DNA of 64,000 bases from an uncultured Verrucomicrobiae bacterium (GTDB lineage: Bacteria > Chlamydiota > Chlamydiia > Chlamydiales > Rhabdochlamydiaceae), in NCBI GenBank assembly GCA_963718565.1, contig OY970364.1, forward strand, positions 1,152,001 through 1,216,000. The letters are read 5' to 3'. Below are positions 12,849-45,362 of the stretch, one piece after another (the stretch's first letter is position 1; every line of letters begins with the position of its first letter). The translations under genes and the position numbers were made by a program. A model generated the notes under the pieces. It worked only from the letters and a program-made list of their open reading frames with translations, was not told where the DNA came from and did no database searches.

Positions 12849-13823
12849 ATGTCAATAATACCAAACAATGCAAGTATAATAAATCAAAACTGTTATTATT
12901 ACTCCAATGGTTCTTACGAACGGAAGAATGCTACTTTTCTCGAGGAAAACTCGACTGTTGCTAAGACTGCAAATTTCCCTCGAAGTATTCATGGTCCAAT
13001 TCCAAGAGAAGAATTGAGGAAACTTGTTGAACATATCGATTTAGATTCCCCGGATTGGGAAAAAGAGATAAAAGAAGCTCTCGCAAATCAACAATTCGTA
13101 GTGGATGGAATCAATTCTGAATCTGAACAACAGCCGAATCAAATAGGAATGACCAAACAATCCTATATCCAAAGTTATTGCAATTGGACAACTGCGAGCA
13201 CTACTGCAATGCTTTTAACGACATTTTTTACCCCTGCAATCATTAAAAAATACTTACCTGGAGTGAGTGAAGCTTTACGATTACCCTCTTACCAAGAAAA
13301 CCAAAATATCGTTTCCTATTCTGGAATGGTATGGAAAAATAGCATAAATCACCTGAGCACTCAACTAACAGAAGCAGTTCCAGCCTACATTTCAGCCCCC
13401 GCTTTATCCTATATCGGCTATAAAGGCCTTGAAGCGCTAATCACCAGTGTTGTTCAGTATCCAGCCACTGATTATAGAACCTGGACCGCTCTCAATCTGC
13501 AGAAATATTTAGAGCAAGTTTATCCTAAATTAATCCCTGAGCAATATCAAAAGGATTCGGTCTTTTGTAAAATTACCAGTCCGGATGGTCGTCCCATTCG
13601 TTCTCCTTTTTACATCGATAAGCCTGAAGAAATGGGCAGGCTATATGAAGAACATGTTTTAAAGAACATATTAAATAATCAACAAAAATTAAACGGCAAG
13701 CTCGTTTGCCCTGCCGATGGAAAAACAGAAATCGAACTAGGAAATATGAAGAGAGACAATGCGCTTTCGGATAGAATTGAGCTTCGCTTACTTCTTCTCG
13801 ATACTCATCGATTTAAAGAATAA
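12849..13823 (+). CDS. Hypothetical protein with degenerate U-box-like C-terminus
   Basis: AT-rich ORF; DSVFCKIT...PIRSP...GRLYE...CP..G...L...D.AL..RIE. Confidence 0.55.
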   Translation: MSIIPNNASIINQNCYYYSNGSYERKNATFLEENSTVAKTANFPRSIHGPIPREELRKLVEHIDLDSPDWEKEIKEALANQQFVVDGINSESEQQPNQIGMTKQSYIQSYCNWTTASTTAMLLTTFFTPAIIKKYLPGVSEALRLPSYQENQNIVSYSGMVWKNSINHLSTQLTEAVPAYISAPALSYIGYKGLEALITSVVQYPATDYRTWTALNLQKYLEQVYPKLIPEQYQKDSVFCKITSPDGRPIRSPFYIDKPEEMGRLYEEHVLKNILNNQQKLNGKLVCPADGKTEIELGNMKRDNALSDRIELRLLLLDTHRFKE

Positions 13824-13824
13824 C

Positions 13825-13844
13825 GAGGGAATTGCAATTCCCTT
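13825..13844. repeat. 20-bp palindromic micro-element
   Basis: GAGGGAATTGCAATTCCCTT flanked by TAAC/TAAC. Confidence 0.85.
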
Positions 13845-13873
13845 TAACTGTATCAGAGCGCACTCTTATGCTC

Positions 13874-15022
13874 CTAAGAACTCTCCAGCAGAGCTCGAAA
13901 AGAGGGATCGTCGCGAAATGGATCAAAGATTTGGTTGGAAAGAACATCTTTCCTATTAGAAAGCCCTTCATTGATGGCTGTTTGCAGCCACCCCACGGTA
14001 GGAACGACTTGCTTTAGGTGGGCATGGGCATAAGCATTGCGCAGGGCAGTTTCTGCTGTCGGCCAATTTTGAAAGCAGGTTCCCGCAAGTTCGACAACGA
14101 GAAGAAAATCCTTTTGCTCAAAGGCAGATTTATGAAGTAAGCAGAGCGAATCTCCGCTGAGCTCTTCGCGTATGGACTTCAGCAATTCGTAGGATTCTTT
14201 CGAATCGCCTTTTTCATATTTTAAAAAAGCCATGTATTGAGTCGCAAGCTCGTAAATCATTCCCTTTTTTGCTTTGGCCCGGATGTCCTGACAAAGACGC
14301 AGGGCCTCTTCCTTATTACCCGTTTGAATGAGCTCTTCGATTTTTTCTAACTGCTCGCGCAAAGAATCATCACGATCATTTTCAGAGAGGTGCCGGGTAC
14401 GCCTGAATGTATCGTAGCTCTGAAATGCCAACAGAAAAAAAAGCGCACCGATCAAAAAAGCTTGAGTGAGGAAGAAAAAGAGGCTGATCGCAACAGCGAC
14501 GATCATACTAGTAAGAATCGCATATTTAAAGCCCTTGAGACCAAAAATTCCTTCCAAGATGACCCTTAACAATTGCCCTCCATCCAGAGGCAGCACTGGA
14601 AGAAGATTGACTACCGTCCAAAACAGATTGACAACACGAGTCAAAGAAAGGATCGATCCTGTCATCCCCTGAGAAAGCGCCGGAACTTGCAACAAAATCG
14701 TCGCTAGGATCGCGAGGAGAAACCCGAAAATCGGACCATTGAGAACGATAAAAAACTGCTTCCAAAAAGAAAGCGTTTTTCCATTGTGGCCACTGTGATA
14801 AGTGAGACCGCCTAAAGCGACAAGTTCGATGCGGGGATTCTGACCAAACATCAACGCTGTCAAAGCATGGCCAAATTCATGGAATAGAACCGACACAAAA
14901 ATGATCGCTACCCAAATCAACGTCCCTATGAAACTCATGCTGTTGATATAGCCGATTAATGCAGCAAAGATCCAAAACGTCGGATAGATGCTGATCGGGA
15001 TACGTCCAGAAAAATGAAGCAT
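13874..15022 (-). CDS. Site-2 protease (M50) family protein with TPR-like C-terminus
   Basis: HEFGH and NLLPVLPLDGG motifs; several TM segments. Confidence 0.92.
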   Translation of the reverse strand: MLHFSGRIPISIYPTFWIFAALIGYINSMSFIGTLIWVAIIFVSVLFHEFGHALTALMFGQNPRIELVALGGLTYHSGHNGKTLSFWKQFFIVLNGPIFGFLLAILATILLQVPALSQGMTGSILSLTRVVNLFWTVVNLLPVLPLDGGQLLRVILEGIFGLKGFKYAILTSMIVAVAISLFFFLTQAFLIGALFFLLAFQSYDTFRRTRHLSENDRDDSLREQLEKIEELIQTGNKEEALRLCQDIRAKAKKGMIYELATQYMAFLKYEKGDSKESYELLKSIREELSGDSLCLLHKSAFEQKDFLLVVELAGTCFQNWPTAETALRNAYAHAHLKQVVPTVGWLQTAINEGLSNRKDVLSNQIFDPFRDDPSFRALLESS

Positions 15023-15024
15023 GA

Positions 15025-15906
15025 TTAAGGTCTTCTTTTCATTGCTTTCAACATCGCTTCGCCCATCAGTGCAGGGGATTCCGTCACGGTAACGCCCGCC
15101 GCTTTAAGGGCGGCCATTTTACTTTTTGCATCTCCTTTTCCTCCAGAGATAATTGCGCCTGCATGCCCCATTCTTTTTCCTGCTGGAGCGGTCACTCCAG
15201 CGATAAATCCAACCACGGGTTTAGTGCAGTTGCCTTTGATCCATTCTGCCGCCTGCTCCTCCGCAATCCCCCCGATTTCTCCGATCATTAAAATTCCTTT
15301 GGTATCGGGATCCATTTCAAAGAGCTTCAGAACGTCAATAAAATGGGTTCCATTGAGCGGATCTCCGCCAATTCCTACACAGGAAGATTGCCCAAGCCCT
15401 AAAATCGTCGTTTGCCAGACAGCTTCATAAGTCAATGTCCCTGAACGAGATACGATTCCGATTTGCCCTCGTTTGTGAATGTAGCCTGGCATGATCCCGA
15501 TTTTGCATTCGTCGGGCGTAATGACTCCTGGGCAATTCGGCCCAATCAGCCGACTGCACTTACTGTCGCGCATCGTTTGACTGACCTCTAGCATATCGCG
15601 CACAGGAATCCCTTCTGTGATGCAAACGATTAAAGGAATGCCTGCATCTTCAGCCTCGATAATGGCATCCGCAGCATAGGGCGGCGGCACAAAAATCATC
15701 GTCGCGTCGCATAGCGTTGCTTTTCTCGCTTCTTCTACCGTGTCAAATACGGGCAGCCCTAAGACTTCTTGTCCCCCTTTTCCAGGTGTGACTCCACCCA
15801 CGAAATGCGTGCCATATAACATACATTGTTCTGTATGAAATTTCCCGGCCTGTCCAGTAATTCCCTGGGTAATCACTTTTGTCTTTTTGTGAACCAAGAT
15901 TGCCAT
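15025..15906 (-). CDS. sucD: Succinyl-CoA synthetase alpha subunit
   Basis: [28 protein letters not shown]. Confidence 0.98.
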
Positions 15907-15914
15907 CGCTTAAC

Positions 15915-17075
15915 CTATTTTAATTGCGCATACACTTTTTCTGCAGCTTCAGCGAGCCCATCGGCAGTGATGATCGGCAGTTTTGATTTCTCGAGCAACT
16001 TTTTACCTTGTTCTACATTTGTTCCTTCCATTCTCACAACAAGAGGAACTTTAATTCCCATGTCGGTGACTGCATCGATAATGCCTTCCGCAAGTGTGGC
16101 ACAATTCATAATGCCGCCAAAAATATTGACTAGAATGGCTTTAACTTTGGGATCGCTTAAAATAATTTTAAAGCCGGCAGCGACCTTTTCTTTGGAAGCT
16201 CCCCCGCCGACATCGAGAAAATTCGCGGGTATCCCCCCATAATATTTGATGATGTCCATCGTCGCCATCGCAAGCCCGGCGCCATTGACCATACACCCGA
16301 TATTCCCATCTAGAGCGATGTAAGCTAATTCGTGTTCTCTGGCTGCCACTTCGTTCTCAGTGTGCTGGGTATGATCGTAAAAAGAAGTGATCTCAGGCTG
16401 TCGAAAAAGTGCGTTATCATCAATCGACAACTTAGCATCCAATGCCCATAATTTTCCCTCTTTTGACTCGACAAGAGGGTTGATTTCCAAAAGCGATGCA
16501 TCTGTATCGATGAACGCTCTGGCCACCCCTTTTGCGATGTGAGCGCCCATTTTGGCCATTTCTTCCTTCCATCCCATAAATTTACATAGCTTGACTAACC
16601 GAAATCCCCTAACAACCCCATTGAGCTCAATAGGTAATTTCAAGATTTTATCGGGATGTTTGGCGGCAACTTCTTCAATTTCCATTCCTCCTTCAGGGGA
16701 AGCGATTAGGATGGGCACAGCATTCTCGCGGTCGATGACGGCGCCGAGGTAGTATTCTTTTTTTATGTCCAGCGGCTTAGAAATGAGAACTTTGTGGGCA
16801 ACCACCCCTAAAGGACCCGTTTGATTATTGACCATCTTCATGCCGATCAAACTCTCGGCAACTTTAGCAATTTCGTCGGGAGTCTTGGCAAATTTAACAC
16901 CGCCCGCTTTTCCGCGCCCGCCCGCATGGACTTGAATTTTGATGACGGCCTCATGAAGACCTAAGTGCCTAATGATCGTGTCCACATCGTGGCTTTTTGT
17001 CGCGACACCAAATGCAGGAATGGGGATGTTGTACCGTTTTAAAATTTCTTTAGCCTGGTATTCGTGAGTATTCAT
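15915..17075 (-). CDS. sucC: Succinyl-CoA synthetase beta subunit
   Basis: HEYQAK, GGRGKAGGV, NGAGLAMATMD, NIFGGI. Confidence 0.98.
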   Translation of the reverse strand: MNTHEYQAKEILKRYNIPIPAFGVATKSHDVDTIIRHLGLHEAVIKIQVHAGGRGKAGGVKFAKTPDEIAKVAESLIGMKMVNNQTGPLGVVAHKVLISKPLDIKKEYYLGAVIDRENAVPILIASPEGGMEIEEVAAKHPDKILKLPIELNGVVRGFRLVKLCKFMGWKEEMAKMGAHIAKGVARAFIDTDASLLEINPLVESKEGKLWALDAKLSIDDNALFRQPEITSFYDHTQHTENEVAAREHELAYIALDGNIGCMVNGAGLAMATMDIIKYYGGIPANFLDVGGGASKEKVAAGFKIILSDPKVKAILVNIFGGIMNCATLAEGIIDAVTDMGIKVPLVVRMEGTNVEQGKKLLEKSKLPIITADGLAEAAEKVYAQLK

Positions 17076-17139
17076 CACCTTCCTCTTATACCTTAATTTC
17101 CTTATCTGCTAGACTCGCCTTTTCCATCAATTCATTTTA

Positions 17140-17349
17140 TACCGAAACAACATGAAGAATCGGTTTTGGCTGCGCTGGACATCCCAGATTTTGAACCCGC
17201 CTGCATCGCGCAACTTGTTCAAGGCGCCTGCTTCCCTTACAAAAGAGCAATCGTGCTCTTTTGGAAGTGTCCGCAGCACCGCCGCTTCGCTGGTTCAAAC
17301 TCTAGGCGCCAGCTTTGCCAAAATCCCGATTCTTCATGTTGTTTCGGTA
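17140..17349. mobile_element. MITE, TACC(C/G)AAACAAC family
   Basis: Perfect TIR TACCGAAACAACATGAAGAATCGG, TA flanks. Confidence 0.9.
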
Positions 17350-17380
17350 TATTTCACTTTTGATAGGGAAATGGGCTCCC

Positions 17381-18316
17381 ATGTTTAATTTTCTTAAAAG
17401 CGGCTATGAAAAGATCAAAAATGCCCTCAGCAAAACGCGCTCCGCTCTTACTCAACGGATCCAAGCACTCTTCGGAAAACCCTGGAGTGAAGATACCTTT
17501 GATGAGCTGGAACAAATTCTGTTTGAAGCCGATCTCGGCACAAAATGCGCGGCATCTTTTGTCGAACATTTACGCTCACAGCTTCGCACAAAGCCGACCA
17601 ATGAGATTGGAGAGATCGTGAAAATTTTTCACGATTATACCTTGTCGATCTTAAATCAAACAAGCCACAAGGCACTCAAGCAACAGGATGCGGACAAGCC
17701 CTATGTTTATCTCATTGTGGGCGTCAACGGGAGCGGAAAAACGACCTCGATTGCTAAATTGGCAAAGCGGATGCAAAAAGAAGGAAAAACAGTCCTTCTG
17801 GCCGCTGGAGACACGTTTCGCGCTGCCGCAATCGAACAACTTTCCACTTGGGCTGGTCGTCTAGGCATCGAAATTGTGAAATCCAAGCCGGGGTCAGATC
17901 CTTCTGCTATTGCCTTTGATGCCCTGACAGCAGCAAAAGCTCGCGGTGCGGACGTGGTTTTCATCGACACTGCGGGACGATTGCAAAACAAGACGGATCT
18001 CATGAAAGAGCTCGAAAAGATCCGTCGAGTCTGCGGGAAGGTCGTTCCTACAGCTCCTCACGAGACCTTGCTCGTCCTGGACGCCACCACGGGCCAAAAT
18101 GCGATTGACCAAGCCCGGGTCTTTGACCAGGTCACCCCTCTCAATGGAATTATCTTAGCTAAACTCGACGGCTCGGCCAAAGGGGGAATCATTCTTTCCA
18201 TTTACCAAGAATTTGGGATCCCCGTTTTATGGGTAGGTGTAGGAGAAAAGATTGAAGATCTCGAACCTTTTGATCCTGCAGCCTACGCCGATTCTCTCTT
18301 TTCTTTGGATCAATAA
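17381..18316 (+). CDS. ftsY: SRP receptor FtsY
   Basis: GVNGSGKTT, DTFRAAA, DTAGR, KLDGSAKGG. Confidence 0.97.
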   Translation: MFNFLKSGYEKIKNALSKTRSALTQRIQALFGKPWSEDTFDELEQILFEADLGTKCAASFVEHLRSQLRTKPTNEIGEIVKIFHDYTLSILNQTSHKALKQQDADKPYVYLIVGVNGSGKTTSIAKLAKRMQKEGKTVLLAAGDTFRAAAIEQLSTWAGRLGIEIVKSKPGSDPSAIAFDALTAAKARGADVVFIDTAGRLQNKTDLMKELEKIRRVCGKVVPTAPHETLLVLDATTGQNAIDQARVFDQVTPLNGIILAKLDGSAKGGIILSIYQEFGIPVLWVGVGEKIEDLEPFDPAAYADSLFSLDQ

Positions 18317-18321
18317 CTCCG

Positions 18322-19020
18322 CTACCTAATTTCGAAACAGCAAGCTCCGACGATCTTCAGTGCTGGAGCCCCCCATTGAAAAGGGAAAACGATCTGTTCT
18401 TTTTTTCTCTTTAAAATGAGCTTTGCTTCCCCTCCATGAAGATCAACAGGAAGATCGATGATCGCTGTCAATTCCCCATACTCGTTGACTTGTTCTGTCT
18501 TAAGTAGAACCTGATTCTCTTGAGCTGCAAGAAACAGCTCTATTTCCTCATAGGCTTCTAGCTCTTCAACAGACAAGAGGAATTTCTCCCCTTTTTCGCC
18601 ACGCAGCTCCAAATTGAGTGTCACGCCATTTTTGGATCTTATTTCCAGAGGAAATGGGACGAGTTGAGTGCAATAGGCATCCTCCTCTGACCTCATCCAA
18701 AAGGTGAGCCTTTCCCCTCTTTTTGCTGGGCAAATCGCATAGATCTCATCTTTATAATCCTCGTCAGGACGGACAAGAACCAGATGCCCTTTCTTGTTAG
18801 AGAGATAATTAAATGTTTCTGTGTGGGTGCCATCAAAACTTTCAACAACGAGGCGATACTTTTTATTGGGAGGGAAATGCTCGGCGCGCAAGTGATAGCG
18901 ATGAAACTTCATCCCTTCCCATGTTCTCTCCCCCCAGTTCTTTTCACAATGCAATTCAGGTCCTGCGGCCCAGATTCCCTGCATCAACATCAAAGTGAAC
19001 AAAAAAAACTGCGTCCTCAT
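18322..19020 (-). CDS. Hypothetical exported protein
   Basis: 232-aa ORF with signal-peptide-like N-terminus and AGGAGAGG RBS. Confidence 0.75.
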   Translation of the reverse strand: MRTQFFLFTLMLMQGIWAAGPELHCEKNWGERTWEGMKFHRYHLRAEHFPPNKKYRLVVESFDGTHTETFNYLSNKKGHLVLVRPDEDYKDEIYAICPAKRGERLTFWMRSEEDAYCTQLVPFPLEIRSKNGVTLNLELRGEKGEKFLLSVEELEAYEEIELFLAAQENQVLLKTEQVNEYGELTAIIDLPVDLHGGEAKLILKRKKEQIVFPFQWGAPALKIVGACCFEIR

Positions 19021-19077
19021 GTCCTCTCCTTCTTTCTTCGCACCTTAGCAATCGCTACAATTGACGTCAAAGAAGCA

Positions 19078-19167
19078 TACCGCGCTCCGTCAGGTTTTGT
19101 AAATTTGGACTGGCTGCGGCTTTGCCTCGCTCTAGTCCAAATTCACAAAACCTTCCTGCGCGCGGTA
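19078..19167. mobile_element. TACCGCGC-ended palindromic element
   Basis: TACCGCGC...GCGCGGTA with internal stem GGTTTTGT(A/G)AATTTGGACT; fragments at 52529-52565 and 61099-61118. Confidence 0.75.
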
Positions 19168-19238
19168 CAGCAAAAAACGAGTTGTCATTCTTTTTTTAAT
19201 TTGACATATTGAACGCAAACGGGTCGTCATCCTAAAGT

Positions 19239-19859
19239 ATGAGAAAACCAATGTTGTTGAAAAAACGCATCTCCCTTTTTTCTCCTCGAGCGATCAGTGA
19301 AAGACACCACCGCAGCTTGCTCATCCAATTTATTCTATTTGAACTCTTCGAAGCTCATAAAGCCTTTTGTCGGAACGAAAATTGGGAAATCATCCTTTCC
19401 CTTCACCCGCGCCATTTTCCTTATGATTGGTCATCTGTTACCGGTTATCTCAACAAAGCCCAGGAGCACAGCATCCTGCTTAAAGATAGCTTTCCCGATC
19501 ACTCCAAATCCGTTAAACATTTCGATGCCCAACTGACAAAAACTTTAACATCTCTGTTCAAGAAAAAGAAAATCTCTTACGAACTGTTTGTTAAGTCACT
19601 GCAGATGATCTACCTTGCTTTTGAGCCACTCATCGCCACCTGTAGAGAAAATGAAAATCTCCTCCACTTTCTACTCAAAAATCACGACACGATCGACTCA
19701 ATCCTGCACAAAGGATATCTCCACGCATACCTCCTTAAAATCCACTCTTGCGACTTGGAAATCCTGGGAGAAAAAATGTGCGACCGGTATCATCAACGCG
19801 GTTTTTTTTCGCAGATCTCTGAATTTAAAATTTTGCTAACTGAACTTGCCCATGCCTGA
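19239..19859 (+). CDS. Hypothetical protein
   Basis: 206-aa ORF overlapping the next gene in an operon with priA. Confidence 0.75.
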   Translation: MRKPMLLKKRISLFSPRAISERHHRSLLIQFILFELFEAHKAFCRNENWEIILSLHPRHFPYDWSSVTGYLNKAQEHSILLKDSFPDHSKSVKHFDAQLTKTLTSLFKKKKISYELFVKSLQMIYLAFEPLIATCRENENLLHFLLKNHDTIDSILHKGYLHAYLLKIHSCDLEILGEKMCDRYHQRGFFSQISEFKILLTELAHA

Positions 19860-20586
19860 CCCTCTTCGCGATCTTATCCGGGACACACTCTCTTATCTGA
19901 AGAACCCTTTATTGCCCAGGCGCTCTCATTTTGCTAGCCCAGAAAATTGCGCCTTTTTTCAAAAGAATAAAGAGCTAGTGACAACACAAAATATCCAAGC
20001 CGCCACGCAGCCGCAAAGTTTTAAAGAAAAGACCACATCTGCCCAACCCAAGACACCCCCCACTAGAGAGCCACTTGCAGACAAACTCTCTGATTCAGCG
20101 CCAGCAGCACACTCCCCCATCCAAAAAACGCTTCAGCGAATTGCTCCCTCGTTAAAACTTCTTGATCAAATTCCCGATGATAGAGGAGCGACAAGAATTT
20201 CCAACGCTTGGAAAGAAAAAATTATCGATGCTGATGTTATCTTGCTCGTTTGTGATTCTCGTTCAGAAACCTTGGATTTTTTAAAAACGCTTGCCAAAGC
20301 CATTGATCAACGTTTGACCAAAGTAAAAATCTTGATGGCCGAAAAGCTGGAACGAGAAAAACGCTGGGACCTATTTTTTGAAAAAAATTCATTGCGTCTC
20401 ATCATTTCTTCGGATACTATCCAGAGACTGCCCGAGCTGATGCGTTTTTATAAAGCACTCCCCGCACAAGCTCAAATTTTTTTAGATCAAACGCCCCTTC
20501 TTGTTCTTTCCCCTGTCTCCACGTATCGATCTCTTGAGCATAAGGCGCTTCTTTGGAAAACGCTATGTCACATGCTCAAGAAGTAA
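19852..20586 (+). CDS. Hypothetical protein upstream of priA
   Basis: 244-aa ORF overlapping both neighbours. Confidence 0.75.
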   Translation: MPDPLRDLIRDTLSYLKNPLLPRRSHFASPENCAFFQKNKELVTTQNIQAATQPQSFKEKTTSAQPKTPPTREPLADKLSDSAPAAHSPIQKTLQRIAPSLKLLDQIPDDRGATRISNAWKEKIIDADVILLVCDSRSETLDFLKTLAKAIDQRLTKVKILMAEKLEREKRWDLFFEKNSLRLIISSDTIQRLPELMRFYKALPAQAQIFLDQTPLLVLSPVSTYRSLEHKALLWKTLCHMLKK

Positions 20587-22808: not shown

Positions 22809-22894
22809 TTGCTTGTGCCCTGCACGGCTTGTGACGGTGTTTGACAAGATTTTTTTCATTCGATATAGAGTGCCATCAGTGATGGAGGGATGCA

Positions 22895-22981
22895 TTGTCG
22901 TTTGCTATTTTTGCAGGGATTCTTTCCATTTTCCTTCTGTTGTATTTATTTGTGACAATCGTTTGGCCGGAAAAGTTTTAA
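22895..22981 (+). CDS. kdpF: KdpF small subunit (absent from ORF track)
   Basis: GGAGG RBS, TTG start, MSFAIFAGILSIFLLLYLFVTIVWPEKF* with the KdpF-type YL...PEKF ending; just before kdpA. Confidence 0.8.
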   Translation: MSFAIFAGILSIFLLLYLFVTIVWPEKF

Positions 22982-22997
22982 AGGATCTGTCAATCTC

Positions 22998-24713: not shown

Positions 24714-24723
24714 AGTGTGTTAC

Positions 24724-26736: not shown

Positions 26737-26740
26737 TATT

Positions 26741-26787
26741 GGGATGTCCAGCGCAGCCAAAAACCGATTCTTCATGTTGTTTCGGTA
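26741..26787. mobile_element. Single end of a TACCGAAACAAC MITE between kdpB and kdpC
   Basis: Reverse complement of the left end of 17140-17349. Confidence 0.8.
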
Positions 26788-26795
26788 TACTTAAA

Positions 26796-27386
26796 ATGTT
26801 TAAAAATGGACTTCTTCTCCTTGTGATCTTTACTCTTTTCTTTGGAGGGGTTTATCCTTTTGTCACTTTTCTCATTGGACGTATGCTATTTCCCTTTCAA
26901 ACAGGAGGAAGCCTTTTATTCCATCCCCAAAGCCAAACAATTATTGGCTCCAAGCTGATTGGTCAAAACTTTACCTCGCCGGTCTATTTTCATCCCCGTC
27001 CTTCATTGACCGATGGAGGACAATATAATGCCGCGAACTCCAAAGGGAGTAAATATGGAATCTTGTCAGAAACTCTCCTCCACGATGTTTTGTCACGAGC
27101 AGAAAAGTACAAAGAGCTCAATTCTTTAGCAGAAGGAATATGCATTCCTATCGATGCCGTTACAGCCTCGGCAAGTGGATTAGATCCGCACATCAGCATT
27201 TCCAATGCGCTTCTGCAAGCTCCCCGGGTAGCTAAAACTCGAGGCATTTCTGAGGACGAAGTCAATGGCTTGATCGAAAAATTTACAGAGCGTCCTTTTT
27301 TCGACCTCTTAGGAGAAACGCGAATTAACGTGCTCTTGCTCAATTTAGCTTTAGATCATGCTTTGATCGAAAAAGAAGAGGAATAA
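26796..27386 (+). CDS. kdpC: K+-transporting ATPase subunit C
   Basis: GSKLIGQ.F, YFHPRPS, DAVTASASGLDPHIS, INVLLLNLALD. Confidence 0.95.
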   Translation: MFKNGLLLLVIFTLFFGGVYPFVTFLIGRMLFPFQTGGSLLFHPQSQTIIGSKLIGQNFTSPVYFHPRPSLTDGGQYNAANSKGSKYGILSETLLHDVLSRAEKYKELNSLAEGICIPIDAVTASASGLDPHISISNALLQAPRVAKTRGISEDEVNGLIEKFTERPFFDLLGETRINVLLLNLALDHALIEKEEE

Positions 27387-27390
27387 AACA

Positions 27391-27468
27391 GAGGGAATTG
27401 CAAAACTCCTCGCCAGCAGAAAATCGATGATTTTGGCACCTGTTGCCAGAACCCGCACAGCGGGTTCG
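27391..27468. mobile_element. Half copy of GAGGG MITE
   Basis: GAGGGAATTGCAAAACTCCTCGCCAGC... is the reverse complement of the right half of 45181-45362. Confidence 0.85.
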
Positions 27469-27661
27469 AGGCAAGCGCAGTATTGCTGGTTGGGCCTCAG
27501 GATCTTCTATTGACTCCGAAGAGACAATGTCATTTTGCGCTCTTACAGGAGTGCGATCGATGAATCAGACCTTTCCACTGGAGCGCGCAGCAGAAGCCTA
27601 TGATCTGATGATGAAGGGAAAAGTCCGTTTTCGCGCCGTTCTCACAATGGAGAAGGGATAA
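27469..27661 (+). pseudogene. C-terminal remnant of a Zn-dependent alcohol dehydrogenase
   Basis: GKRSIAGWASG...FPLERAAEAYDLMMKGKVRFRAVL; the 5' part is replaced by the MITE half. Confidence 0.8.
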
Positions 27662-27765
27662 ATGTCCCTTTACTTATCTCTGTTTTTATTTTAAAATGAT
27701 GTCCCAATTTTCAGTATGAGATTTTTTTTCTGTTTAAAATTTTCAAACCTCCAAAAGGATTTGCC

Positions 27766-29076
27766 ATGTCTAAAGAGAGCGCTCAAAAAACGTTGGAAAG
27801 AAAAAAAGAGTTCGGTTCATTGCATGCGTGGGTAATCTGGCTTTTGAGCGCCTTATTTATGTTTTATAAATATGCCCTCGAAGTTTCTCCCAGCGTCATG
27901 ACCTCAACCCTAATGAGCACTTTCAAAATTTCCGGTGCATCCCTAGGAAACCTGGCAGCCTGTTATTTCTACGCTTATCTTTTGCTGCAAATTCCCGCAG
28001 GACTGCTCTTAGACAAAATTGGACCAAGAAAGGTGACAACACTTGCCATCGCCCTTTGCGCGGCAGGAAGTTTAATTTTTGCTAATGCGCATTCTTTATG
28101 GATTGCTGGAATTGGTCGTTTCATCACTGGAACTGGAGCCGCTTTTGCTGCTGTGAACTGTCTTAAGCTGATCGCTAACTGGTTTTCTATGAAACAATTC
28201 GCATTCATGACAGGTTTAATGATGACAGTAGCCATGCTCGGCGCTGTCGGTGGGCAAGCGCCTCTAGCTGCCTTCATCGATGCAATGGACTGGCGTTATG
28301 CAATGGAAATCATTGGGATCGCCGGCCTGGTTCTGGCTGGAATTTTTTGGATCGTTGTCCGCGATATTTCTCCTCATCATAAAAAAGAGCGCCATATCGT
28401 TTCTCAAAGCATTTCCTTTTTCGATAGCTTGAAAAGAGTTTTAAAAAACCCTCAAGCATGGTGGCTTTCAGCCTATAGCGGATTTGCCTTTGCCCCTGTA
28501 ATGATCTTCGGCGGACTGTGGGGGGTATCTTTCCTTTCTGAAGCTTTTGAAGTTTCACATAATATTTCCGCACAGGCCGTCTCATTGATTTTCATTGGAT
28601 TTGCCGTCGGCGCTCCTTTTTTTGGCTGGTTTTCAGATTGGTTAGGGAGACGCAAAGTCGTCATGTTCTGGGGGACGCTTCTGGCCCTGATCACAATCTC
28701 TGGGGTAATCTATACTCCTGGATTGACCCACACTTCGATCATCCTTCTCTTATTTCTTTTCGGCTTTGCCATTAGCAGCTTTCTGCTTTGTTTTACAATG
28801 ATCCGGGAAATCAGTTTGCCTATTTTGGCGGCAACAGCCATCGGTTTTATGAATGCCTTTGATGCTCTTTTCGGAGCGTTTTCGGATCCTCTGACAGGTA
28901 AATTCCTCGATTGGGGCTGGGATGGAAAACTTGTAGATGGAGCTAGAATTTTTTCAGTCCAAGCTTATAAGGCAGCCTTTTTGACTCTTCCAGCCTATTT
29001 GATGATTTCTCTGTTTACTTTACTGCGCATTAGGGAGACTTTTTGCAAACCCTCTTTTCCCACTCCACTGCCTTAG
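27766..29076 (+). CDS. MFS transporter
   Basis: GLLLDKIGPRK and GWFSDWLGRRK motif A; about 12 TM segments. Confidence 0.93.
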   Translation: MSKESAQKTLERKKEFGSLHAWVIWLLSALFMFYKYALEVSPSVMTSTLMSTFKISGASLGNLAACYFYAYLLLQIPAGLLLDKIGPRKVTTLAIALCAAGSLIFANAHSLWIAGIGRFITGTGAAFAAVNCLKLIANWFSMKQFAFMTGLMMTVAMLGAVGGQAPLAAFIDAMDWRYAMEIIGIAGLVLAGIFWIVVRDISPHHKKERHIVSQSISFFDSLKRVLKNPQAWWLSAYSGFAFAPVMIFGGLWGVSFLSEAFEVSHNISAQAVSLIFIGFAVGAPFFGWFSDWLGRRKVVMFWGTLLALITISGVIYTPGLTHTSIILLLFLFGFAISSFLLCFTMIREISLPILAATAIGFMNAFDALFGAFSDPLTGKFLDWGWDGKLVDGARIFSVQAYKAAFLTLPAYLMISLFTLLRIRETFCKPSFPTPLP

Positions 29077-29088
29077 AGGGCTCCATGA

Positions 29089-29219
29089 GTACGTCCTCAA
29101 AAACCTATGGCAAGCACTGAATGTCATTTGGATCCATGCCAGGCTTTGCATTTATCGATCTCAATCAGGCATGGATCCAAATGGTCTTCAACTTTTGCCA
29201 TGAGTTTTTAAGGACGTAC
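29089..29219. mobile_element. 131-bp GTACGTCC MITE, copy 3 (inverted)
   Basis: 8-bp TSD CTCCATGA; supplies the stop codon of 29208-30191. Confidence 0.92.
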
Positions 29220-30191
29220 CTCCATGACAGATTTCCATTTGTCCAAGTACTTAACCATGCCGGAAAAGCTTGAAGTATCGAGAATTTCCACAAGCGGGCC
29301 CCCAATGTGGGAAATTGCCGTCGTATTGATATGGAACTGTTGATAGCAATAAGTGTCCCAGTCGATGATTTGAGCACATGAGGAAAGGTACCCTCGATCG
29401 ATTAAGGCATTAAAAAACTTTTGCGGATCGTTCAATTCATTCTTCTCGTGGGTTTGAATCACAATCAATTGTAAATTGTCTCTAGGAAATTCAAGAAAAG
29501 GAGTGAGGTTCATCGCACGCGACATTCCTGAAATGATCCCATTTAAATAGGTAAAGCGAGAAGGCGTTTTGTCTTCAACAAGCAGATAGAGATGAGGATA
29601 GAGATGTCCCCGAGGCTCCTGATTGGTGAACAGGGGATTTTCAACTCGAAATCGACTAGAATGAGTCAAGACAAGTTTAGCTGTCGTTTTCCGTGAATCT
29701 CCAAGAGAGAGTTCAATCATTTTTCGGGAAGAATCAATGAAAACGCTTTCCAATTTTTGATGGAGAAGGACTGCATTGGAACGAGATTGAATCGCTGCTT
29801 GCAATCGCGATACAAGCTCATAACACCCATGGGAAAAATAATAGCCGTTTGCGCATTGAGAATGAGAATCCATTGCCTCTTGGTCAGGATGCAGCAAACA
29901 AAGAAATTTGCACCCAAAGTATTTTTGAAAAAACTCTTTTAGTCGAGGATCGGCACCGATCAAATGACAACCAAGATCGGCATTGGCAATTCCACAGATA
30001 TCAATACTCTTCCATGCGCCGCCGCATTTTTCATCAGCCTCTAAGATCAAGACACGCTCGTTCTTTGAGATGTGGTAGATCGCTTCCAACATTGAAATAG
30101 GGCTGGTGCCAACCACAGCAACATCATAGTCAGTGTGAACAGCAAACAGCAATCCCTTCAACAAAAGGAGAAGGACTAAAACAAAACGCAT
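29208..30191 (-). CDS. Exported protein with degenerate FAD/NAD-binding N-terminus
   Basis: YDVAVVGTSP...VLILEA...GGAW...DLGCH Rossmann-like pattern. Confidence 0.7.
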   Translation of the reverse strand: MRFVLVLLLLLKGLLFAVHTDYDVAVVGTSPISMLEAIYHISKNERVLILEADEKCGGAWKSIDICGIANADLGCHLIGADPRLKEFFQKYFGCKFLCLLHPDQEAMDSHSQCANGYYFSHGCYELVSRLQAAIQSRSNAVLLHQKLESVFIDSSRKMIELSLGDSRKTTAKLVLTHSSRFRVENPLFTNQEPRGHLYPHLYLLVEDKTPSRFTYLNGIISGMSRAMNLTPFLEFPRDNLQLIVIQTHEKNELNDPQKFFNALIDRGYLSSCAQIIDWDTYCYQQFHINTTAISHIGGPLVEILDTSSFSGMVKYLDKWKSVMEVRP

Positions 30192-30213
30192 TGTATGACT
30201 CCAGAGGGCGTTC

Positions 30214-30798
30214 TTAAGTCACTTTAAAATCCTTCCAATAGTTTAGATTGGCATTGGTCTCTTGATTAAAAGAGAGCGAAAAAAAAGTGTTTACAAGTTT
30301 GCGAAAGTCACTCCATGGCCTATCGCCATATCCATACACGGACAAGAGTGGATGAAAGCGCTTTTCTAAAGGGCTTCCGACCAGATATTTTCCCCAAACG
30401 AGCTGTTGGGTTTTTGAAAAAAGAGTAGCTCCGGCAAATAAACAAGCCCCCGCAATGAGAATAGGAATTCCAAGCGACATTCGAACAGCAGTGGATAAGG
30501 GTTGTGCAATAACACCAAGACCCTTAGAAATCTCCTCTACACTTATAGCAGCATTTGCACAAATTTGGACGACTAATTCCCCCGCTCTCACCGCGAAGAA
30601 GGGGGGGAAACCAAGTGCCATAGCTAGAGTGGATTTGGTTCCTTGCTCACATCCAGGAATTTTTAACTCCCGTTGTACATCCTGTGATGTCAAACGGTCG
30701 AGAAATATCTGTTGTCTTGCATTCACTCGACGCTCAATTGTACTTACCTGATTTGTAGAAAAGGTTGGAGATGGATGACGCGAACCAATTGGATGCAT
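30214..30798 (-). CDS. Hypothetical membrane-associated protein
   Basis: About 194-aa ORF with hydrophobic segments. Confidence 0.6.
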   Translation of the reverse strand: MHPIGSRHPSPTFSTNQVSTIERRVNARQQIFLDRLTSQDVQRELKIPGCEQGTKSTLAMALGFPPFFAVRAGELVVQICANAAISVEEISKGLGVIAQPLSTAVRMSLGIPILIAGACLFAGATLFSKTQQLVWGKYLVGSPLEKRFHPLLSVYGYGDRPWSDFRKLVNTFFSLSFNQETNANLNYWKDFKVT

Positions 30799-30903
30799 AA
30801 ATGACCTCAGGGTTGATTTTACCCGACCTAAGGTACCACAACACACAGATTAGTTTAAAAATAATCCTGTCAATTTTTCAGAAATCTGATATTGCATAGG
30901 GAT

Positions 30904-32166
30904 ATGCTTAAGAGGGAATTGCAAAACTTCTCGCCGCATAAAATCGCGCTTTTGGCACCTGTCGCCTTGGCGGCGGCTGCCTTCGGCCCCGGTTCGCTCC
31001 TTCGCTCACCTGCTTTGCACTGCGAAGGTTCCCCGGACCTTCTCGTGTCTTCGCAGCCACTTATCCAAGTATGCTTTCGCCGCCGCCAACCGAACCCGCT
31101 GTGCGGGTTCTGGCAACAGGAGCCAAAATCATCGATTTTCTACTGGCGAGGAGTTTTGCAACTCCCTCTTAAATGTTTCCTTTTTTCTTTGCTTGTTTAT
31201 CCAGGGCTGTTACGTGCGAGTGAACCGGAACAGGAAAAGAATACTTCACAGGAAATTGTACCCTGGTTCACTGGTCCATTAATCGCTCCTATTGGAGCTG
31301 TCATTCCCATTGGGCACTATTGCATTCAACCCTTTTTTGAGTTCAATACTGCGACGGGCATTTACAATCGTCATCGGCATGATGTTTCGACGCCGAATTT
31401 TTTTAACTTCATTGCTAGCGTTCAAGTCACAGTGGGAACTTTAGAATGGATGGATATTCAGATTACTCCTGAATTTCTTTACAATCATACTCACGCGGAT
31501 ACTCTGCCCAATCCTCATAGTGCATCCTCCTGGCGCTTGGGCGATCTGCCTTTAAATTTGGATTTCCAACTCGTGAGTATAGACAAATTTAAATATTTTC
31601 CAGGAATTAAATTCTCATTGACAGAGTCTTTTCCAACAGGAAAATATCAAAAGCTCAACCCTTTCAAACTACTCACAGATATTGGAGGCAGCGGGACTTT
31701 TGCGACAACAGGCAGTCTGGTCTTTTACAAAATCTATCACATTTCTGGGTTTCATTTTTTAAGCATGACAACAAGTCTGGGCTATACCTATCACACCCCT
31801 GTCCATGTAAGAGGCCTTAACTTTTACGGAGGAGGGCCTGGCTGCGCTGGAAAAGTATATCCTGGCAATTCCTTTGGAGCCATCGCAAGCTTTGAATTCA
31901 GCCTCGATCGACACTGGGCTTTAGCTTTAGACAATGTTTATGTCCATTTTGACAGGGATCGTTTTAAAGGAACCCCTGGATTCAGCGCCCCTTTAATTCC
32001 CGCTATCGTAGGAAGACCTTCTTCAGAATCACTCAGTTTCGCCCCAGCGATCGAATATAATTTTAATGAGAACTGGGGGATCATCGCCGGCGCATGGGTT
32101 TCTGCAATCGGACGAAACACGCTGGTCTTCCGCAATGCTCTTTTGAGTTTTGTTTACCAATATTAA
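30904..32166 (+). CDS. Outer membrane beta-barrel/transporter-like protein with in-frame MITE insertion
   Basis: PWFTGPLIAP, FPTGKYQ, APAIEYNF, aromatic C-terminus; native N-terminus MLKCFLFSLLVYPGLLRA is restored by removing 261 bp. Confidence 0.8.
   Translation: MLKRELQNFSPHKIALLAPVALAAAAFGPGSLLRSPALHCEGSPDLLVSSQPLIQVCFRRRQPNPLCGFWQQEPKSSIFYWRGVLQLPLKCFLFSLLVYPGLLRASEPEQEKNTSQEIVPWFTGPLIAPIGAVIPIGHYCIQPFFEFNTATGIYNRHRHDVSTPNFFNFIASVQVTVGTLEWMDIQITPEFLYNHTHADTLPNPHSASSWRLGDLPLNLDFQLVSIDKFKYFPGIKFSLTESFPTGKYQKLNPFKLLTDIGGSGTFATTGSLVFYKIYHISGFHFLSMTTSLGYTYHTPVHVRGLNFYGGGPGCAGKVYPGNSFGAIASFEFSLDRHWALALDNVYVHFDRDRFKGTPGFSAPLIPAIVGRPSSESLSFAPAIEYNFNENWGIIAGAWVSAIGRNTLVFRNALLSFVYQY
30912..31168. 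mobile_element. 257-bp GAGGG...CCCTC MITE
   Basis: TIR GAGGGAATTGCAAAACT / AGTTTTGCAACTCCCTC, TSD TTAA. Confidence 0.92.
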
Positions 32167-32173
32167 CCAAGCA

Positions 32174-32219
32174 TTTCCCGATGAAGAATTTTCCTAGAGG
32201 AAAATTCTTCATCGGGAAA
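32174..32219. repeat. About 45-bp palindromic repeat, copy 2
   Basis: Perfect stem TTTCCCGATGAAGAATTTTCCT / AGGAAAATTCTTCATCGGGAAA. Confidence 0.8.
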
Positions 32220-32288
32220 ATAAATTACCCCATTGAGTTTTTTATTGTTATAAAAAAAAGGTATTTGTAAATACAAACAGTAGGGTTA

Positions 32289-32308
32289 GAGGGAATTGCA
32301 ATTCCCTC
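32289..32308. repeat. 20-bp palindromic micro-element
   Basis: GAGGGAATTGCAATTCCCTC flanked by GTTA/GTTA. Confidence 0.9.
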
Positions 32309-32371
32309 GTTAGATTTTTGTGTTTTTGAAAATAACCGGCCCTTAAGGGCCGCGTTTCCACCGGAGGACGG

Positions 32372-32563
32372 ATGAAAAAATACTCATTGCTCGGCTTTCT
32401 CATTTTGTGCGCTTGCGGTGGCGGCCACTATCACGATGGCTATTATGATGATGGCTATTATGATGATCATCACCATCATCATCACGATCATGATCATGAT
32501 GAACATCACGGAGATCATGACGGTGATCACCATGAAGGAAGCCACGGCGGCGGACACCACTGA
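32372..32563 (+). CDS. Small His/Asp-rich lipoprotein
   Basis: GGAGG RBS, MKKYSLLGFLILCAC lipobox, poly-His tail. Confidence 0.75.
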   Translation: MKKYSLLGFLILCACGGGHYHDGYYDDGYYDDHHHHHHDHDHDEHHGDHDGDHHEGSHGGGHH

Positions 32564-32567
32564 AAAC

Positions 32568-33572
32568 TCAGCTGGTTTTATCCATTCGCCATTTAGCAAA
32601 TTGCTTAGCGTAGTAAGTGATGATAAAATCAGCGCCAGCTCTTCGAATGCCACGCAAAATCTCTAGGACAGCTTTCTTTTCATCTAGCCAACCTCTTTCA
32701 GCAGCAGCTTTGAGCATGGCAAATTCACCACTTGTATGGTAGGCTCCAAGAGGAACATAGGGATAAGCTTGTTTGACTCTGTAGATGACGTCAAGATAAG
32801 CATGAGCTGGCTTGACCATGAGCATGTCCGCTCCTTCTTCCACATCGAGATGGGCCTCGCGTAAAGCTTCCCGCGCATTGGCAGTATCCATTTGATGAGT
32901 GCTTCGATCGCCAAAACTTGGAGCTCCCTCTGCGGCAGCCCGAAAAGGTCCGTAGAGACACGAGTGATATTTCACTGAATAGCTAAGAATGGGGATCTGC
33001 TCAAAACCTGCTCCATCCAATCCTCGGCGGATCGCTGCAACCATCCCATCGATCATGCCGCTGGGCGCAACGACATCGACACCAGCTTGTGCATGGCTGA
33101 TGGCTTGCTTTACAAGCAATTCTAGTGTTTTATCGTTGTCAAGATCGACCTTCCCGGCTCTTGGGCTTAAATATCCGCAATGCCCATGATCGGTATATTC
33201 GCAAAAACAGAGATCGGAAAAAATCAGAAGATCAGGAGCAGCTTTTCGAATGGTTCTAATGGCCTCTTGAATGATCCCATTTTCATGGTAGGCATCTGAG
33301 CCCAGAGGATCTTTGTACGGCGGTATCCCAAATAATAAAACCGATCTCAGACCAAGATCGACAATCTCTTCAATTTCTTGAGGAAGACATGGAATCGGAA
33401 TGTGGAACAGCCCAGGCATGGTGTCAATAAGCTGTTTTTTGCCTTCATGCCCTTTAATAAAAAGCGGGAGAATGAGATTTTGAAGATCAATCTCAGTTTC
33501 CCGAATCAAATCCCGCAAAATAGGATGCTGTCTTAACCGTCTTAAACGTGAGAATGGGAATGTCGTCGTCAT
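32568..33572 (-). CDS. hemB: Porphobilinogen synthase
   Basis: DLCFCEYTDHGHCG, APSGMIDG, MLMVKPA. Confidence 0.97.
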   Translation of the reverse strand: MTTTFPFSRLRRLRQHPILRDLIRETEIDLQNLILPLFIKGHEGKKQLIDTMPGLFHIPIPCLPQEIEEIVDLGLRSVLLFGIPPYKDPLGSDAYHENGIIQEAIRTIRKAAPDLLIFSDLCFCEYTDHGHCGYLSPRAGKVDLDNDKTLELLVKQAISHAQAGVDVVAPSGMIDGMVAAIRRGLDGAGFEQIPILSYSVKYHSCLYGPFRAAAEGAPSFGDRSTHQMDTANAREALREAHLDVEEGADMLMVKPAHAYLDVIYRVKQAYPYVPLGAYHTSGEFAMLKAAAERGWLDEKKAVLEILRGIRRAGADFIITYYAKQFAKWRMDKTS

Positions 33573-34393
33573 CACTTGCCTTTATCCTCTAGAGGGAATT
33601 GCAATTCCCTCTCTACTTTATCGAGCTGAAGATTCACTTGAGCGATATAGAATTTTGATGTCCCTTCAAACCCTGAATCTGTCCCTAAGAAGATCCAGAG
33701 GCGGCCTTGAGAATCGCTTTGCGCGCGCAAGGGGATTCTATGACCTAGCTGTTTAGGACAATAACGGGAATCATAAGGATCTAGGGCCGGACTTTCCAAA
33801 TCGCCGATGACTAGAGCATTTTTTCCAGAGCTCGCTTGATTACCCTTGTCGACATTCAACAGATAATAGTCATTTAGAAGGACCTTTTTGGGCTCTTCGC
33901 AACTCGCACCAACTTTGAAAAATACGCTTTTCCCTGGAGACCCGCCAATTCCCACCGAAAACCCTGAGGAGACATTGCTTTCGATCCAAACAGAAAAAAT
34001 GAGATCATAAAAGGCATTGGGCTGCAAACCTTCAATTTGGCGCTTGGCAAACATAAAAAGATCATCACTATGGTTATTTCCTGTTAAGAAAAAACCTTTT
34101 GTGAGGTTTGTACTGGAAGTGCTGATCTCAACAGGAAGATTTTCCCATCCCCATGCGAGTTCGAAAAAACTCTCGCCACCTACAGGATAATCCGCAAACT
34201 CCCCCACCCATCCATGATTGCTGTTAGAGAAAGTAAACTCATTGACGATCTCTTGCGCCCCAAACAACGAAATCGACCTGATTAGGGAAATAACGATAAA
34301 TAGAGGGAATCGCAAAACTCCTCGCCAGCAGAAAATCGATGATTTTGGCACCTGTTGCCAGAACCCGCACAGCGGGTTCGGTTGACAGATCAT
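33572..34393 (-). CDS. Hypothetical exported protein with MITE-derived segments at both ends
   Basis: FADYP, GNNHSDDLFMF, GTDSGFEG core; N-terminal QPNPLCGFWQQ and C-terminal RELQFPLE are MITE-encoded. Confidence 0.75.
   Translation of the reverse strand: MICQPNPLCGFWQQVPKSSIFCWRGVLRFPLFIVISLIRSISLFGAQEIVNEFTFSNSNHGWVGEFADYPVGGESFFELAWGWENLPVEISTSSTNLTKGFFLTGNNHSDDLFMFAKRQIEGLQPNAFYDLIFSVWIESNVSSGFSVGIGGSPGKSVFFKVGASCEEPKKVLLNDYYLLNVDKGNQASSGKNALVIGDLESPALDPYDSRYCPKQLGHRIPLRAQSDSQGRLWIFLGTDSGFEGTSKFYIAQVNLQLDKVERELQFPLEDKGK
33592..33611. repeat. 20-bp palindromic micro-element inside a CDS
   Basis: GAGGGAATTGCAATTCCCTC flanked by TCTA/TCTA. Confidence 0.9.
34303..34384. mobile_element. Half copy of GAGGG MITE
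   Basis: Near-identical to 27391-27468. Confidence 0.85.
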
Positions 34394-45180: not shown

Positions 45181-45362
45181 GAGGGAATTGCCAAACTCTT
45201 CGCCGCATAAAATCGCGCTTTTGGCACCTGTCGCCTTGGCGGCGGATCTCCTACTTATCCAAGTATGCTTTCGCCGCCGCCAACCGAACCCGCTGTGCGA
45301 GTTCTGGCAACAGATGCCAAAATCATCGATTTTCTGCTGGCGAGGAGTTTTGCAATTCCCTC
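45181..45362. mobile_element. 182-bp GAGGG...CCCTC MITE
   Basis: TIR GAGGGAATTGC, TSD TATT. Confidence 0.92.

Follow-up and report, generated by a model that had tools for sequence, protein, structure and literature searches.

The window analysed here, a 64-kb stretch of DNA, carries three copies of the 20-bp palindrome GAGGGAATTGCAATTCCCTC, at positions 13825 (with T as its last base), 32289 and 33592, against an average of 0.00 matches over 100 shuffles. They lie between direct repeats of 4 bp, TAAC, GTTA and TCTA, respectively, which confirms the arrangement described in a first, sequence-only reading of the window. The first copy with its TAAC repeats (13821..13848) follows ORF 12849..13823 on the plus strand, the left TAAC containing the stop codon TAA of this ORF, and lies within the spacer of about 50 bp ahead of the convergent ORF 13874..15022 on the minus strand. 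The second copy (32285..32312, exact, with GTTA) lies between the convergent ORFs 30892..32166 (+) and 32568..33575 (-). A simple scan scored this copy as terminator-like, a score that is no evidence of function. The third copy (33588..33615, exact, with TCTA) belongs to the reading frame of ORF 33572..34393 (-), where it lies in the C-terminal tail within the last 14 codons, and is 17 bp upstream of the GTG start (33575) of the next ORF. Read from the sequence, all frames of the 20-mer are free of stop codons. The window also holds two members of a GAGGG-ended family of palindromic MITEs, one of 257 bp with TTAA duplications at 30912..31168 and one of 182 bp with TATT duplications at 45181..45362. 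The former as single-stranded DNA, and likewise the latter, are predicted to fold into almost full-length hairpins, with -77.8 kcal/mol and a z value of -10.8 for the 257-bp element and -60.9 kcal/mol and a z value of -12.4 for the 182-bp element.

ORF 33572..34393 (-) is listed with 273 aa and ends in ..DKVERELQFPLEDKGK, the tail being ..QLDKVE-RELQFPLE-DKGK before the stop codon. The listed N-terminus is translated from MITE DNA; therefore, the actual start probably lies further inside the ORF. The eight residues RELQFPLE, which had been ascribed to the insertion, are indeed missing from the orthologue in the genus genome G004, which ends in ..QLNDAED and a stop codon. Within the genus, empty counterparts were also found for inserts elsewhere in the genome that contains the window (G000, 2.28 Mb). 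In a TruA-like protein, the eight residues are missing from 11 of 11 orthologues examined, and the DNA of the site is a clean empty site, with a single GGAA in G004 against GGAA-20mer-GGAA in G000. The insert of an RluD-like protein is missing from all 11 orthologues examined, the gap being 7 residues and not 8. That of a secretin is missing from 9/9, eight of which begin directly with the signal peptide. An orthologue of a 358-aa ORF carrying an insert was looked for in the genus and none was found, and the alignment of intergenic copies with empty sites in relatives failed, as the sequences were too diverged. The relatives compared at scar sites are 68-85% identical and empty.

The genome-wide count suggested in the earlier reading yielded 14 exact matches to the 20-mer, 19 with up to one mismatch, 22 with up to two and 25 with up to three. 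Among these 25 hits, the one at 2052013 is the start of a 182-bp MITE, and those at 422975 and 1793288 have a junction of another class. Twenty-base elements with at most two mismatches in each 13-nt end were counted, giving n = 22. All four flanking bases match in 14 of the 22 and three of four in 5, and two copies have inverted instead of direct flanks. A full match is expected by chance at about 0.004 per site, i.e. in about 0.1 cases by our own arithmetic, and a control in which the flanks were shifted by 4 bases yielded 0.

A palindrome of this kind might bind a dimeric regulator or serve as a structural element resembling REPs, in both cases without descent from a transposon. The perfect 20-bp symmetry, the terminator-like scores of two window copies in the simple scan and the location of the 20-mers mostly outside long ORFs across the genome agree with this explanation. 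However, duplications flank most copies, the sequence is identical to MITE ends, orthologous sites are empty, and the copies occupy settings as different as ORFs, the gap between convergent genes and the sequence following a stop codon. To our knowledge, REPs have not been described as making target duplications. REP elements are extragenic palindromes of 20-40 bp (PMC3733652) and, in what that source tells of them, resemble the 20-mers in size, palindromic shape and mostly intergenic location. They differ, as far as described there, in not being the ends of a larger MITE, whereas the elements here have duplications and copies also in ORFs. The earlier reading had named a lack of duplications together with a strict promoter location as the mark of a transcription factor operator; in fact, duplications are the rule and the sites are not confined to promoters. 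Hence a regulatory or structural origin appears extremely improbable.

Comparison with the family ends bears out the proposal that the 20-mer equals both MITE termini joined at TTGCAA. It consists of the outer 10 bases of both arms (13 with the overlap), and the ends are perfectly identical to the family termini in 14 of the 22 20-mers. The GAGGG family comprises size classes near 56, 71, 182 and 257 bp, together with shortened forms of 47 to 80 bp, which form a gradation and are mostly palindromic. Its target duplications follow T-W-W-A, with T at position 1 in 52 and A at position 4 in 45 of 70 elements, and the bias in the 20-mers is the same as in the parent MITEs. Judging from the many near-identical copies with duplications in the genome, the family has clearly been mobile in the past.

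The only direct repeats of at least 4 nt common to both 32-nt arms are AATT, TTGCAA, GAGG and CCTC, and TTGCAA is the longest with 6 bp. Deletion between the copies of each repeat predicts a product, and three of the four products were found with duplications, namely the 20-mer from TTGCAA and two mirror-image 21-mers from GAGG and CCTC. The AATT product, a 14-mer, was absent. The one-armed 21-mers with perfect duplications number 13, with the right arm kept in 9 and the left arm in 4. In addition, four 22-mers, one 19-mer and one 15-mer were found. The control with shifted flanks yielded 0 for these products as well. In the one-armed scars only 4-5 nt of one end are left and the duplications are still present. 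Such scars must therefore be in-place deletions, as they cannot be two-ended transposons, which makes deletion in situ the best reading of the micro-elements. Paralogous flanks were seen only in one tandem duplication, which carries the same 21-mer twice.

Based on these sequence comparisons, we propose with a probability of about 0.68 that the 20-mers are in-place deletion remnants of full GAGGG MITEs, formed by hairpin-aided slippage between the TTGCAA copies. A full element, which would have preceded each scar, would insert at the site and create the 4-bp T-W-W-A duplication. TTGCAA occupies bases 8-13 of each inverted arm and, because it is its own reverse complement, forms a 6-bp direct repeat across the element. 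During replication, the near-perfect hairpin would extrude and the growing strand would slip between the TTGCAA copies by copy-choice. Everything between them would be lost, leaving GAGGGAA-TTGCAA-TTCCCTC with both duplications. The predicted scar of 20 bp plus one extra 4-bp duplication amounts to 24 bp, frame-neutral and stop-free. It may persist because it is too short to be unstable, within genes as an 8-residue insert. The earlier proposal that deletion at TTGCAA leaves a fixed, frame-neutral 24-bp scar is thus supported by the longest shared repeat, the GAGG and CCTC scars and the empty orthologues. Inside long open frames there are 4 of the 22 20-mers and none of 19 scars with a length other than 24 bp, a contrast that is not statistically significant. 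Points that speak against the model are the missing AATT product, the two copies with inverted flanks, the 7-residue gap in the RluD-like orthologues, the lack of the 20-mer in the relatives searched and the failure to find a full and a collapsed allele at one site.

The deletion might instead depend on a transposase that cuts the element out, followed by repair through interrupted copying from the sister chromosome or through microhomology annealing at TTGCAA or GAGG/CCTC. Internally deleted P, Ac/Ds and mariner elements of eukaryotes are the analogue. This route would give the same products as slippage, as it keeps the duplications and places the junctions at the only microhomologies that the arms share, and the mobility of the family agrees with it. 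However, if the element were cut cleanly at its ends, 10-17 nt of arm would not stay behind, and bacteria are not known to keep footprints at donor sites as a rule. Moreover, neither a transposase for GAGGG ends nor a Ku domain was found in the genome. The Ku search (PF02735) gave 0 matches in G000 and was positive in the Bacillus subtilis control, which argues against end-joining footprints. The excision footprints of eukaryotic cut-and-paste transposons (Tc1/mariner, P and hAT) result from transposase cuts and end joining, and they too are short palindromic remnants of both ends between target duplications. Here, in contrast, Ku domain and partner transposase were not found and the one-armed products point to slippage between repeats. 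We therefore consider a transposase-dependent scar unlikely. Slippage is probably the deletion route rather than break repair, two processes which the sequence alone cannot separate.

The search for a partner transposase turned up several candidates in the genome that were rejected. A 1740-bp unit bounded by GAGGG is not an autonomous element and consists of a 113-bp relative, an ISAs1-type insertion and an IS630-type remnant. A short HTH ORF beside one GAGGG end is part of an IS630-type element ending in GGGTATA, full relatives of which in genome G068 have TATACT ends. One DDE_Tnp_1 element has ACTCACC ends and 5-bp duplications, DDE_Tnp_1 hits occurring singly lack GAGGG ends in their vicinity, and pairs of GAGGG at distances of 0.8-3 kb simply enclose host genes. 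Altogether, the ISAs1-type, IS630-type and other DDE elements of the genome have ends and duplications unlike those of the GAGGG family, and PF13586, PF05598 and PF13359 gave no match in the genome. The SbcD C-terminal domain (SbcD_C) was not found in the genome either, a weak indication from one domain only.

The earlier reading had also raised the alternative of an extremely small mobile unit, in which the 20-mer would be moved in trans via its outer 10 bases as the smallest MITE and make its own 4-bp duplication on arrival. The 22 copies share one exact structure at different sites with their own duplications, and arrival of a 24-bp unit in frame would explain copies in conserved genes with no disrupted intermediate. 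The 20-mer also occurs in some lineages and is absent from others having the parent family. It was found in other species, at 28 loci of a metagenome scan (about 23 distinct sites, 19 with perfect duplications) and at 4 loci of a genome scan. No match with up to one mismatch was obtained in 40 relatives, including G008 and G009. The latter two have about 80 hits each to the first 17 nt of the arm, so that at the ratio of G000 a few scars would be expected there.

Against a mobile 20-mer, one-armed 21-mers with duplications are just as common and show that micro-elements of this kind arise by deletion in place. The 20-mers have 0.50 mismatches per 20 terminal nt, compared with 0.15 and 0.22 in the abundant long classes, and perfect duplications in 14/22, compared with 22/27 in the 182-bp class and 16/23 in the class of about 257 bp. 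Higher divergence and a smaller share of perfect duplications are more easily reconciled with end products than with a unit that has recently begun to spread. Of an arm of at least 21 nt, no more than 10 nt (13 with the overlap) are left, and from general transpososome geometry a 20-bp duplex could hardly place both ends at bonds 4 bp apart. In addition, no partner transposase was found, and three long family members also lie inside long open frames, so an in-frame precursor is possible. Mobility of the 20-mer itself is accordingly judged very unlikely. If true, it would be the smallest transposable DNA known, with 10-bp ends, inserting as a stop-free 24-bp unit in frame and thereby placing inserts of 8 residues straight into conserved genes of environmental chlamydiae.

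In the Tn10 work of d'Alencon et al., a small palindromic remnant is reportedly left together with both target duplications. Nearly precise excision of Tn10 is a deletion between short direct repeats in the inverted IS10 ends (PMC12524634, on d'Alencon et al.). As far as that source covers the process, it resembles the proposed collapse of the GAGGG MITEs in having endpoints in short direct repeats owed to the inversion of the arms, kept duplications, a small palindromic remnant and a proposed hairpin-helped copy-choice slippage. It differs, within the same account, in being a laboratory reversion event, whereas here the collapse would have occurred naturally and repeatedly, at dozens of MITE sites in the chromosome, with a 6-bp repeat and a stop-free scar of 24 bp tolerated inside genes. 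The Rickettsia palindromic elements (RPE) of about 150 bp add tens of residues to proteins (PMC10969869). Similar to the GAGGG family, they are described in that source as mobile palindromic repeats. They belong to an obligate intracellular bacterium, lie in the reading frame of unrelated genes and supply extra peptide segments. In contrast, the unit here is a collapsed 20-bp remnant adding 8 residues, and its parent family has clear 4-bp duplications. A literature search gave nothing on chlamydial MITEs or bacterial MITE micro-scars, and, among the papers searched, none combining 'miniature inverted-repeat' and 'Rhabdochlamydia'.

If the 20-mers are deletion remnants, they mark the end of the life cycle of gene-invading palindromic elements in environmental chlamydiae. 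Such elements would decay not only by point mutation but also by collapsing into micro-scars of fixed form, at a small number of microhomologies that can be predicted. As the commonest scar is frame-neutral and stop-free, a disruptive insertion could become a harmless 8-residue insert, as exemplified by the pseudouridine synthases and the secretin signal peptide. The scars would be easy markers of past insertions and would record in nature the slippage driven by hairpins, in a genome in which neither Ku nor the SbcD C-terminal domain was found. For annotation, short peptides such as RELQFPL or GNCNS within proteins of chlamydiae are better interpreted as transposon scars.

Concerning alleles, the earlier reading had suggested looking for empty, full and collapsed states at orthologous sites. 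The empty state was found as described above; a full MITE in one genome or strain with a 20-mer at the same site in another was not found, and none of the 20-mer loci of the metagenome and genome scans lies at a site where G000 has a family member. In four soil runs with a near-identical strain at low depth, neither a joint nor an indel was reported for the sites 32289 and 33592, and none of the contigs listed spans them. With the loose pattern GAGGG-N(0-40)-CCTC, the counts in five relatives were near the control except in G008 (156 vs 102).

The 20-bp palindrome GAGGGAATTGCAATTCCCTC (the 20-mer) lies in the window at 13825 (last base T), 32289 and 33592, with the same 4 bp directly on both sides (TAAC, GTTA and TCTA, respectively), and gave no match in 100 dinucleotide-preserving shuffles of the window, confirming the sequence-only reading that each copy carries its own target duplication. 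The copy at 13825 directly follows a stop codon, which its left duplication includes, and that at 32289 is located between convergent genes. A genome-wide count, which that reading had proposed as a check, was made on the single contig of 2,284,058 bp (43.6% G+C), of which the window covers bases 1152001-1216000. Exact copies number 14, and allowing one, two or three mismatches raises the count to 19, 22 and 25, respectively. Of these 25, one is no more than the beginning of a 182-bp element, and two fall into another junction class. Among the 22 elements of twenty bases whose ends are recognisable, 14 have perfect 4-bp direct flanks, against about 0.1 expected by chance according to our arithmetic, and three of the four bases match in five more; control flanks offset by four bases gave no perfect match. 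A 5-bp repeat, TTCAA, flanks one exact 20-mer.

The same 13-nt ends bound non-coding elements of recurring sizes (47-56, 70-72, 182 and 257-259 bp) in the GAGGG family of palindromic MITEs, the arm of which is GAGGGAATTGCAAAACTCCTCGCC. The 182-bp class has 23 copies and the 257-259-bp class 18, and most members of the family carry perfect 4-bp duplications, with a T-W-W-A pattern (first T in 52 of 70, last A in 45 of 70). Folded as single-stranded DNA, the 182-bp and 257-bp copies of the window form almost full-length hairpins of -60.9 kcal/mol (z -12.4) and -77.8 kcal/mol (z -10.8), respectively. The shortened forms of 47-80 bp are still mostly palindromic and look like intermediate central deletions. 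Genome-wide, length plus 4 is divisible by 3 in 50 of the 70 members with perfect duplications, a count driven by the 20-, 182- and 257-bp classes.

The 20-mer is exactly what results when the seven outermost bases of each arm are joined through a single TTGCAA. Listing the direct repeats of at least 4 nt between both 32-nt arms of one perfect 182-bp copy yielded four: AATT, TTGCAA, GAGG and CCTC. Deletion between the two copies of a repeat would give a 14-mer for AATT, the 20-mer for TTGCAA and, for GAGG and CCTC, a mirror-image pair of 21-mers that each retain one whole arm. The 14-mer was not found in the genome. Besides the 14 perfectly flanked 20-mers, the genome contains 13 21-mers with perfect 4-bp duplications, nine retaining the right arm and four the left, as well as four 22-mers, one 19-mer and one 15-mer. 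The one-armed 21-mers keep just 4-5 bases of one end and therefore cannot be two-ended transposons, and are nonetheless flanked by duplications at either end. This allows no origin other than full insertions whose interior was lost later; these 21-mers are the key result of this analysis. The same deletion process acting at TTGCAA explains the 20-mer, which is the commonest class because this repeat is the longest one shared. The main interpretation of the sequence-only reading, a MITE collapsed at TTGCAA, is thus supported, and the 20-mer appears as a stereotyped deletion scar. An identical 21-mer scar with a TATC duplication is present at genome positions 408782 and 409781, 1 kb apart in both units of a tandemly duplicated segment, so that the scar is older than the duplication.

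The process that we favour as the one that would make the 20-mer and the other scars is copy-choice slippage across the extruded hairpin, because the junctions coincide exactly with direct repeats common to both arms, fixed transposase cuts would hardly account for one-armed products, and searches of the genome found neither a Ku domain match nor a transposase having GAGGG ends. Breaks induced by a transposase and followed by interrupted repair predict the same products, and the two routes cannot be told apart by sequence alone. Copy-choice slippage has been proposed for the nearly precise excision of Tn10 (d'Alencon et al., as cited in PMC12524634), and the 20-mer scar represents a natural, recurrent form of this long-known laboratory phenomenon. 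The SbcD C-terminal domain was likewise not found in the genome, an absence that may perhaps help to explain its tolerance of hundreds of long palindromes.

Empty orthologous sites within the genus confirm 20-mers in four genes as insertions. In the TruA-like gene, ..AAT GGAA-20mer-GGAA TGC.. is read as ..SLN-GRGNCNSP-GMLPKEI, while 11 of 11 orthologues examined show ..SLNGMLPKEI or similar, and GGAA occurs only once at the site of the relative G004. The insert of the RluD-like gene, directly before the conserved RPGIVHRLDKDTSG, is absent in 11 of 11 orthologues examined, with a gap of seven residues rather than eight. In the secretin gene, the element follows codon 2 (M-T-RELQFSLT-KKW...) and is absent in nine of nine orthologues examined, eight of which begin directly at the signal peptide and one of which is ambiguous. 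As had been claimed, the 33592 copy adds RELQFPLE to a protein; these residues lie close to the end of the ORF 33572..34393 (-) and are missing from the G004 orthologue, the C-terminus of which reads ..QLNDAED. The scar also proved frame-neutral as predicted, since the 20-mer with one duplication adds 24 bp and the 20-mer itself is free of stop codons in every frame (E-G-I-A-I-P, R-E-L-Q-F-P or G-N-C-N-S-L), the other strand reading the same because of the palindrome. Long open frames hold 4 of 22 20-mers versus 0 of 19 scars of other lengths, which is the direction expected if genes tolerate only the frame-neutral scar, although the contrast is not significant. The scar gains modest interest from this neutrality and from its marking of past insertions in conserved genes. 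Long open frames also contain three long copies of the family. Two ORFs of the mechanical listing, 30892..32166 (+) and 33572..34393 (-), start within MITE DNA (window 30892-31170 and 34303-34393), with N-termini such as ..PNPLCGFWQQ..SSIF.WRGVL, and their true starts are probably internal.

Two 20-mers have reverse-complement instead of direct flanks, at genome positions 998869 (CCAG/CTGG) and 1426097 (TGTA/TACA). The latter is the RluD copy, where the flanks lengthen the palindrome to a perfect 32 bp inside the gene. A hairpin-templated switch copying one flank onto the other would possibly account for both, in one step each.

The 20-mer was not found in 40 of 40 relatives searched, while the first 17 nt of the arm matched in 18 of 18 genus genomes, with about 80 matches each in two. 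Four other chlamydial genomes have one copy each, the genomes with the exact 20-mer being named Simkaniaceae, Waddliaceae and Chlamydiae MAGs. Metagenomes contain it at 28 loci, which represent about 23 distinct sites, 19 of them with perfect duplications. No site with both full and collapsed alleles was found among the relatives, which are just 68-85% identical with sites empty or unalignable; public soil runs contained a near-identical strain at low depth only and showed nothing at the sites covered. The patchy distribution could reflect the age of the MITE burst in each lineage. It would also be expected if the 20-mer were itself a lineage-specific mobile unit, but the 21-mers show that in-place deletion yields such micro-elements, just 10-13 nt are left per arm, and a 20-bp duplex would, we infer, hardly be able to set both ends 4 bp apart on the target, making a mobile 20-mer very improbable. 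Terminal mismatches per 20 nt are 0.50 in the 20-mers versus 0.15 in the 182-bp and 0.22 in the ~257-bp class, in small numbers, and perfect duplications are rarer in the 20-mers than in both classes. This divergence, small numbers considered, is more in line with end products of decay than with a unit spreading now.

Other repeats were also observed. The ~57 bp at window 32321-32378 with the GC hairpin CGGCCCTTAAGGGCCG belong to another dispersed repeat family, with many 90-95% identical copies in six same-genus genomes (G001-G004, G012 and G013). Another genome of the genus, G008, has its own mini forms of the GAGGG family (loci L050-L053; 34 and ~54-60 bp) with a different inner sequence, one of the four inspected having a clear 4-bp duplication. 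A 113-bp class (10 copies, e.g. genome 320392-320504), with one GAGGG end, GAGCGAATTGCGAG at the other, arms of ~45 nt and no clear 4-bp duplication, is related to, yet distinct from, the family. The ISAs1-type element at window 53006-54274 (PF13808 and PF01609; ends CAGGGCCATTTAAC, duplications of 9-11 bp) is one of 13 genome copies, 11 of them full-length and identical, and a copy elsewhere lies within a 113-bp relative of the family. A copy of a DDE_Tnp_1 element, bounded by ACTCACCTTACGCAAA and with duplications of 5 bp, occupies window 35588-36724; the genome has eight full copies of this element.
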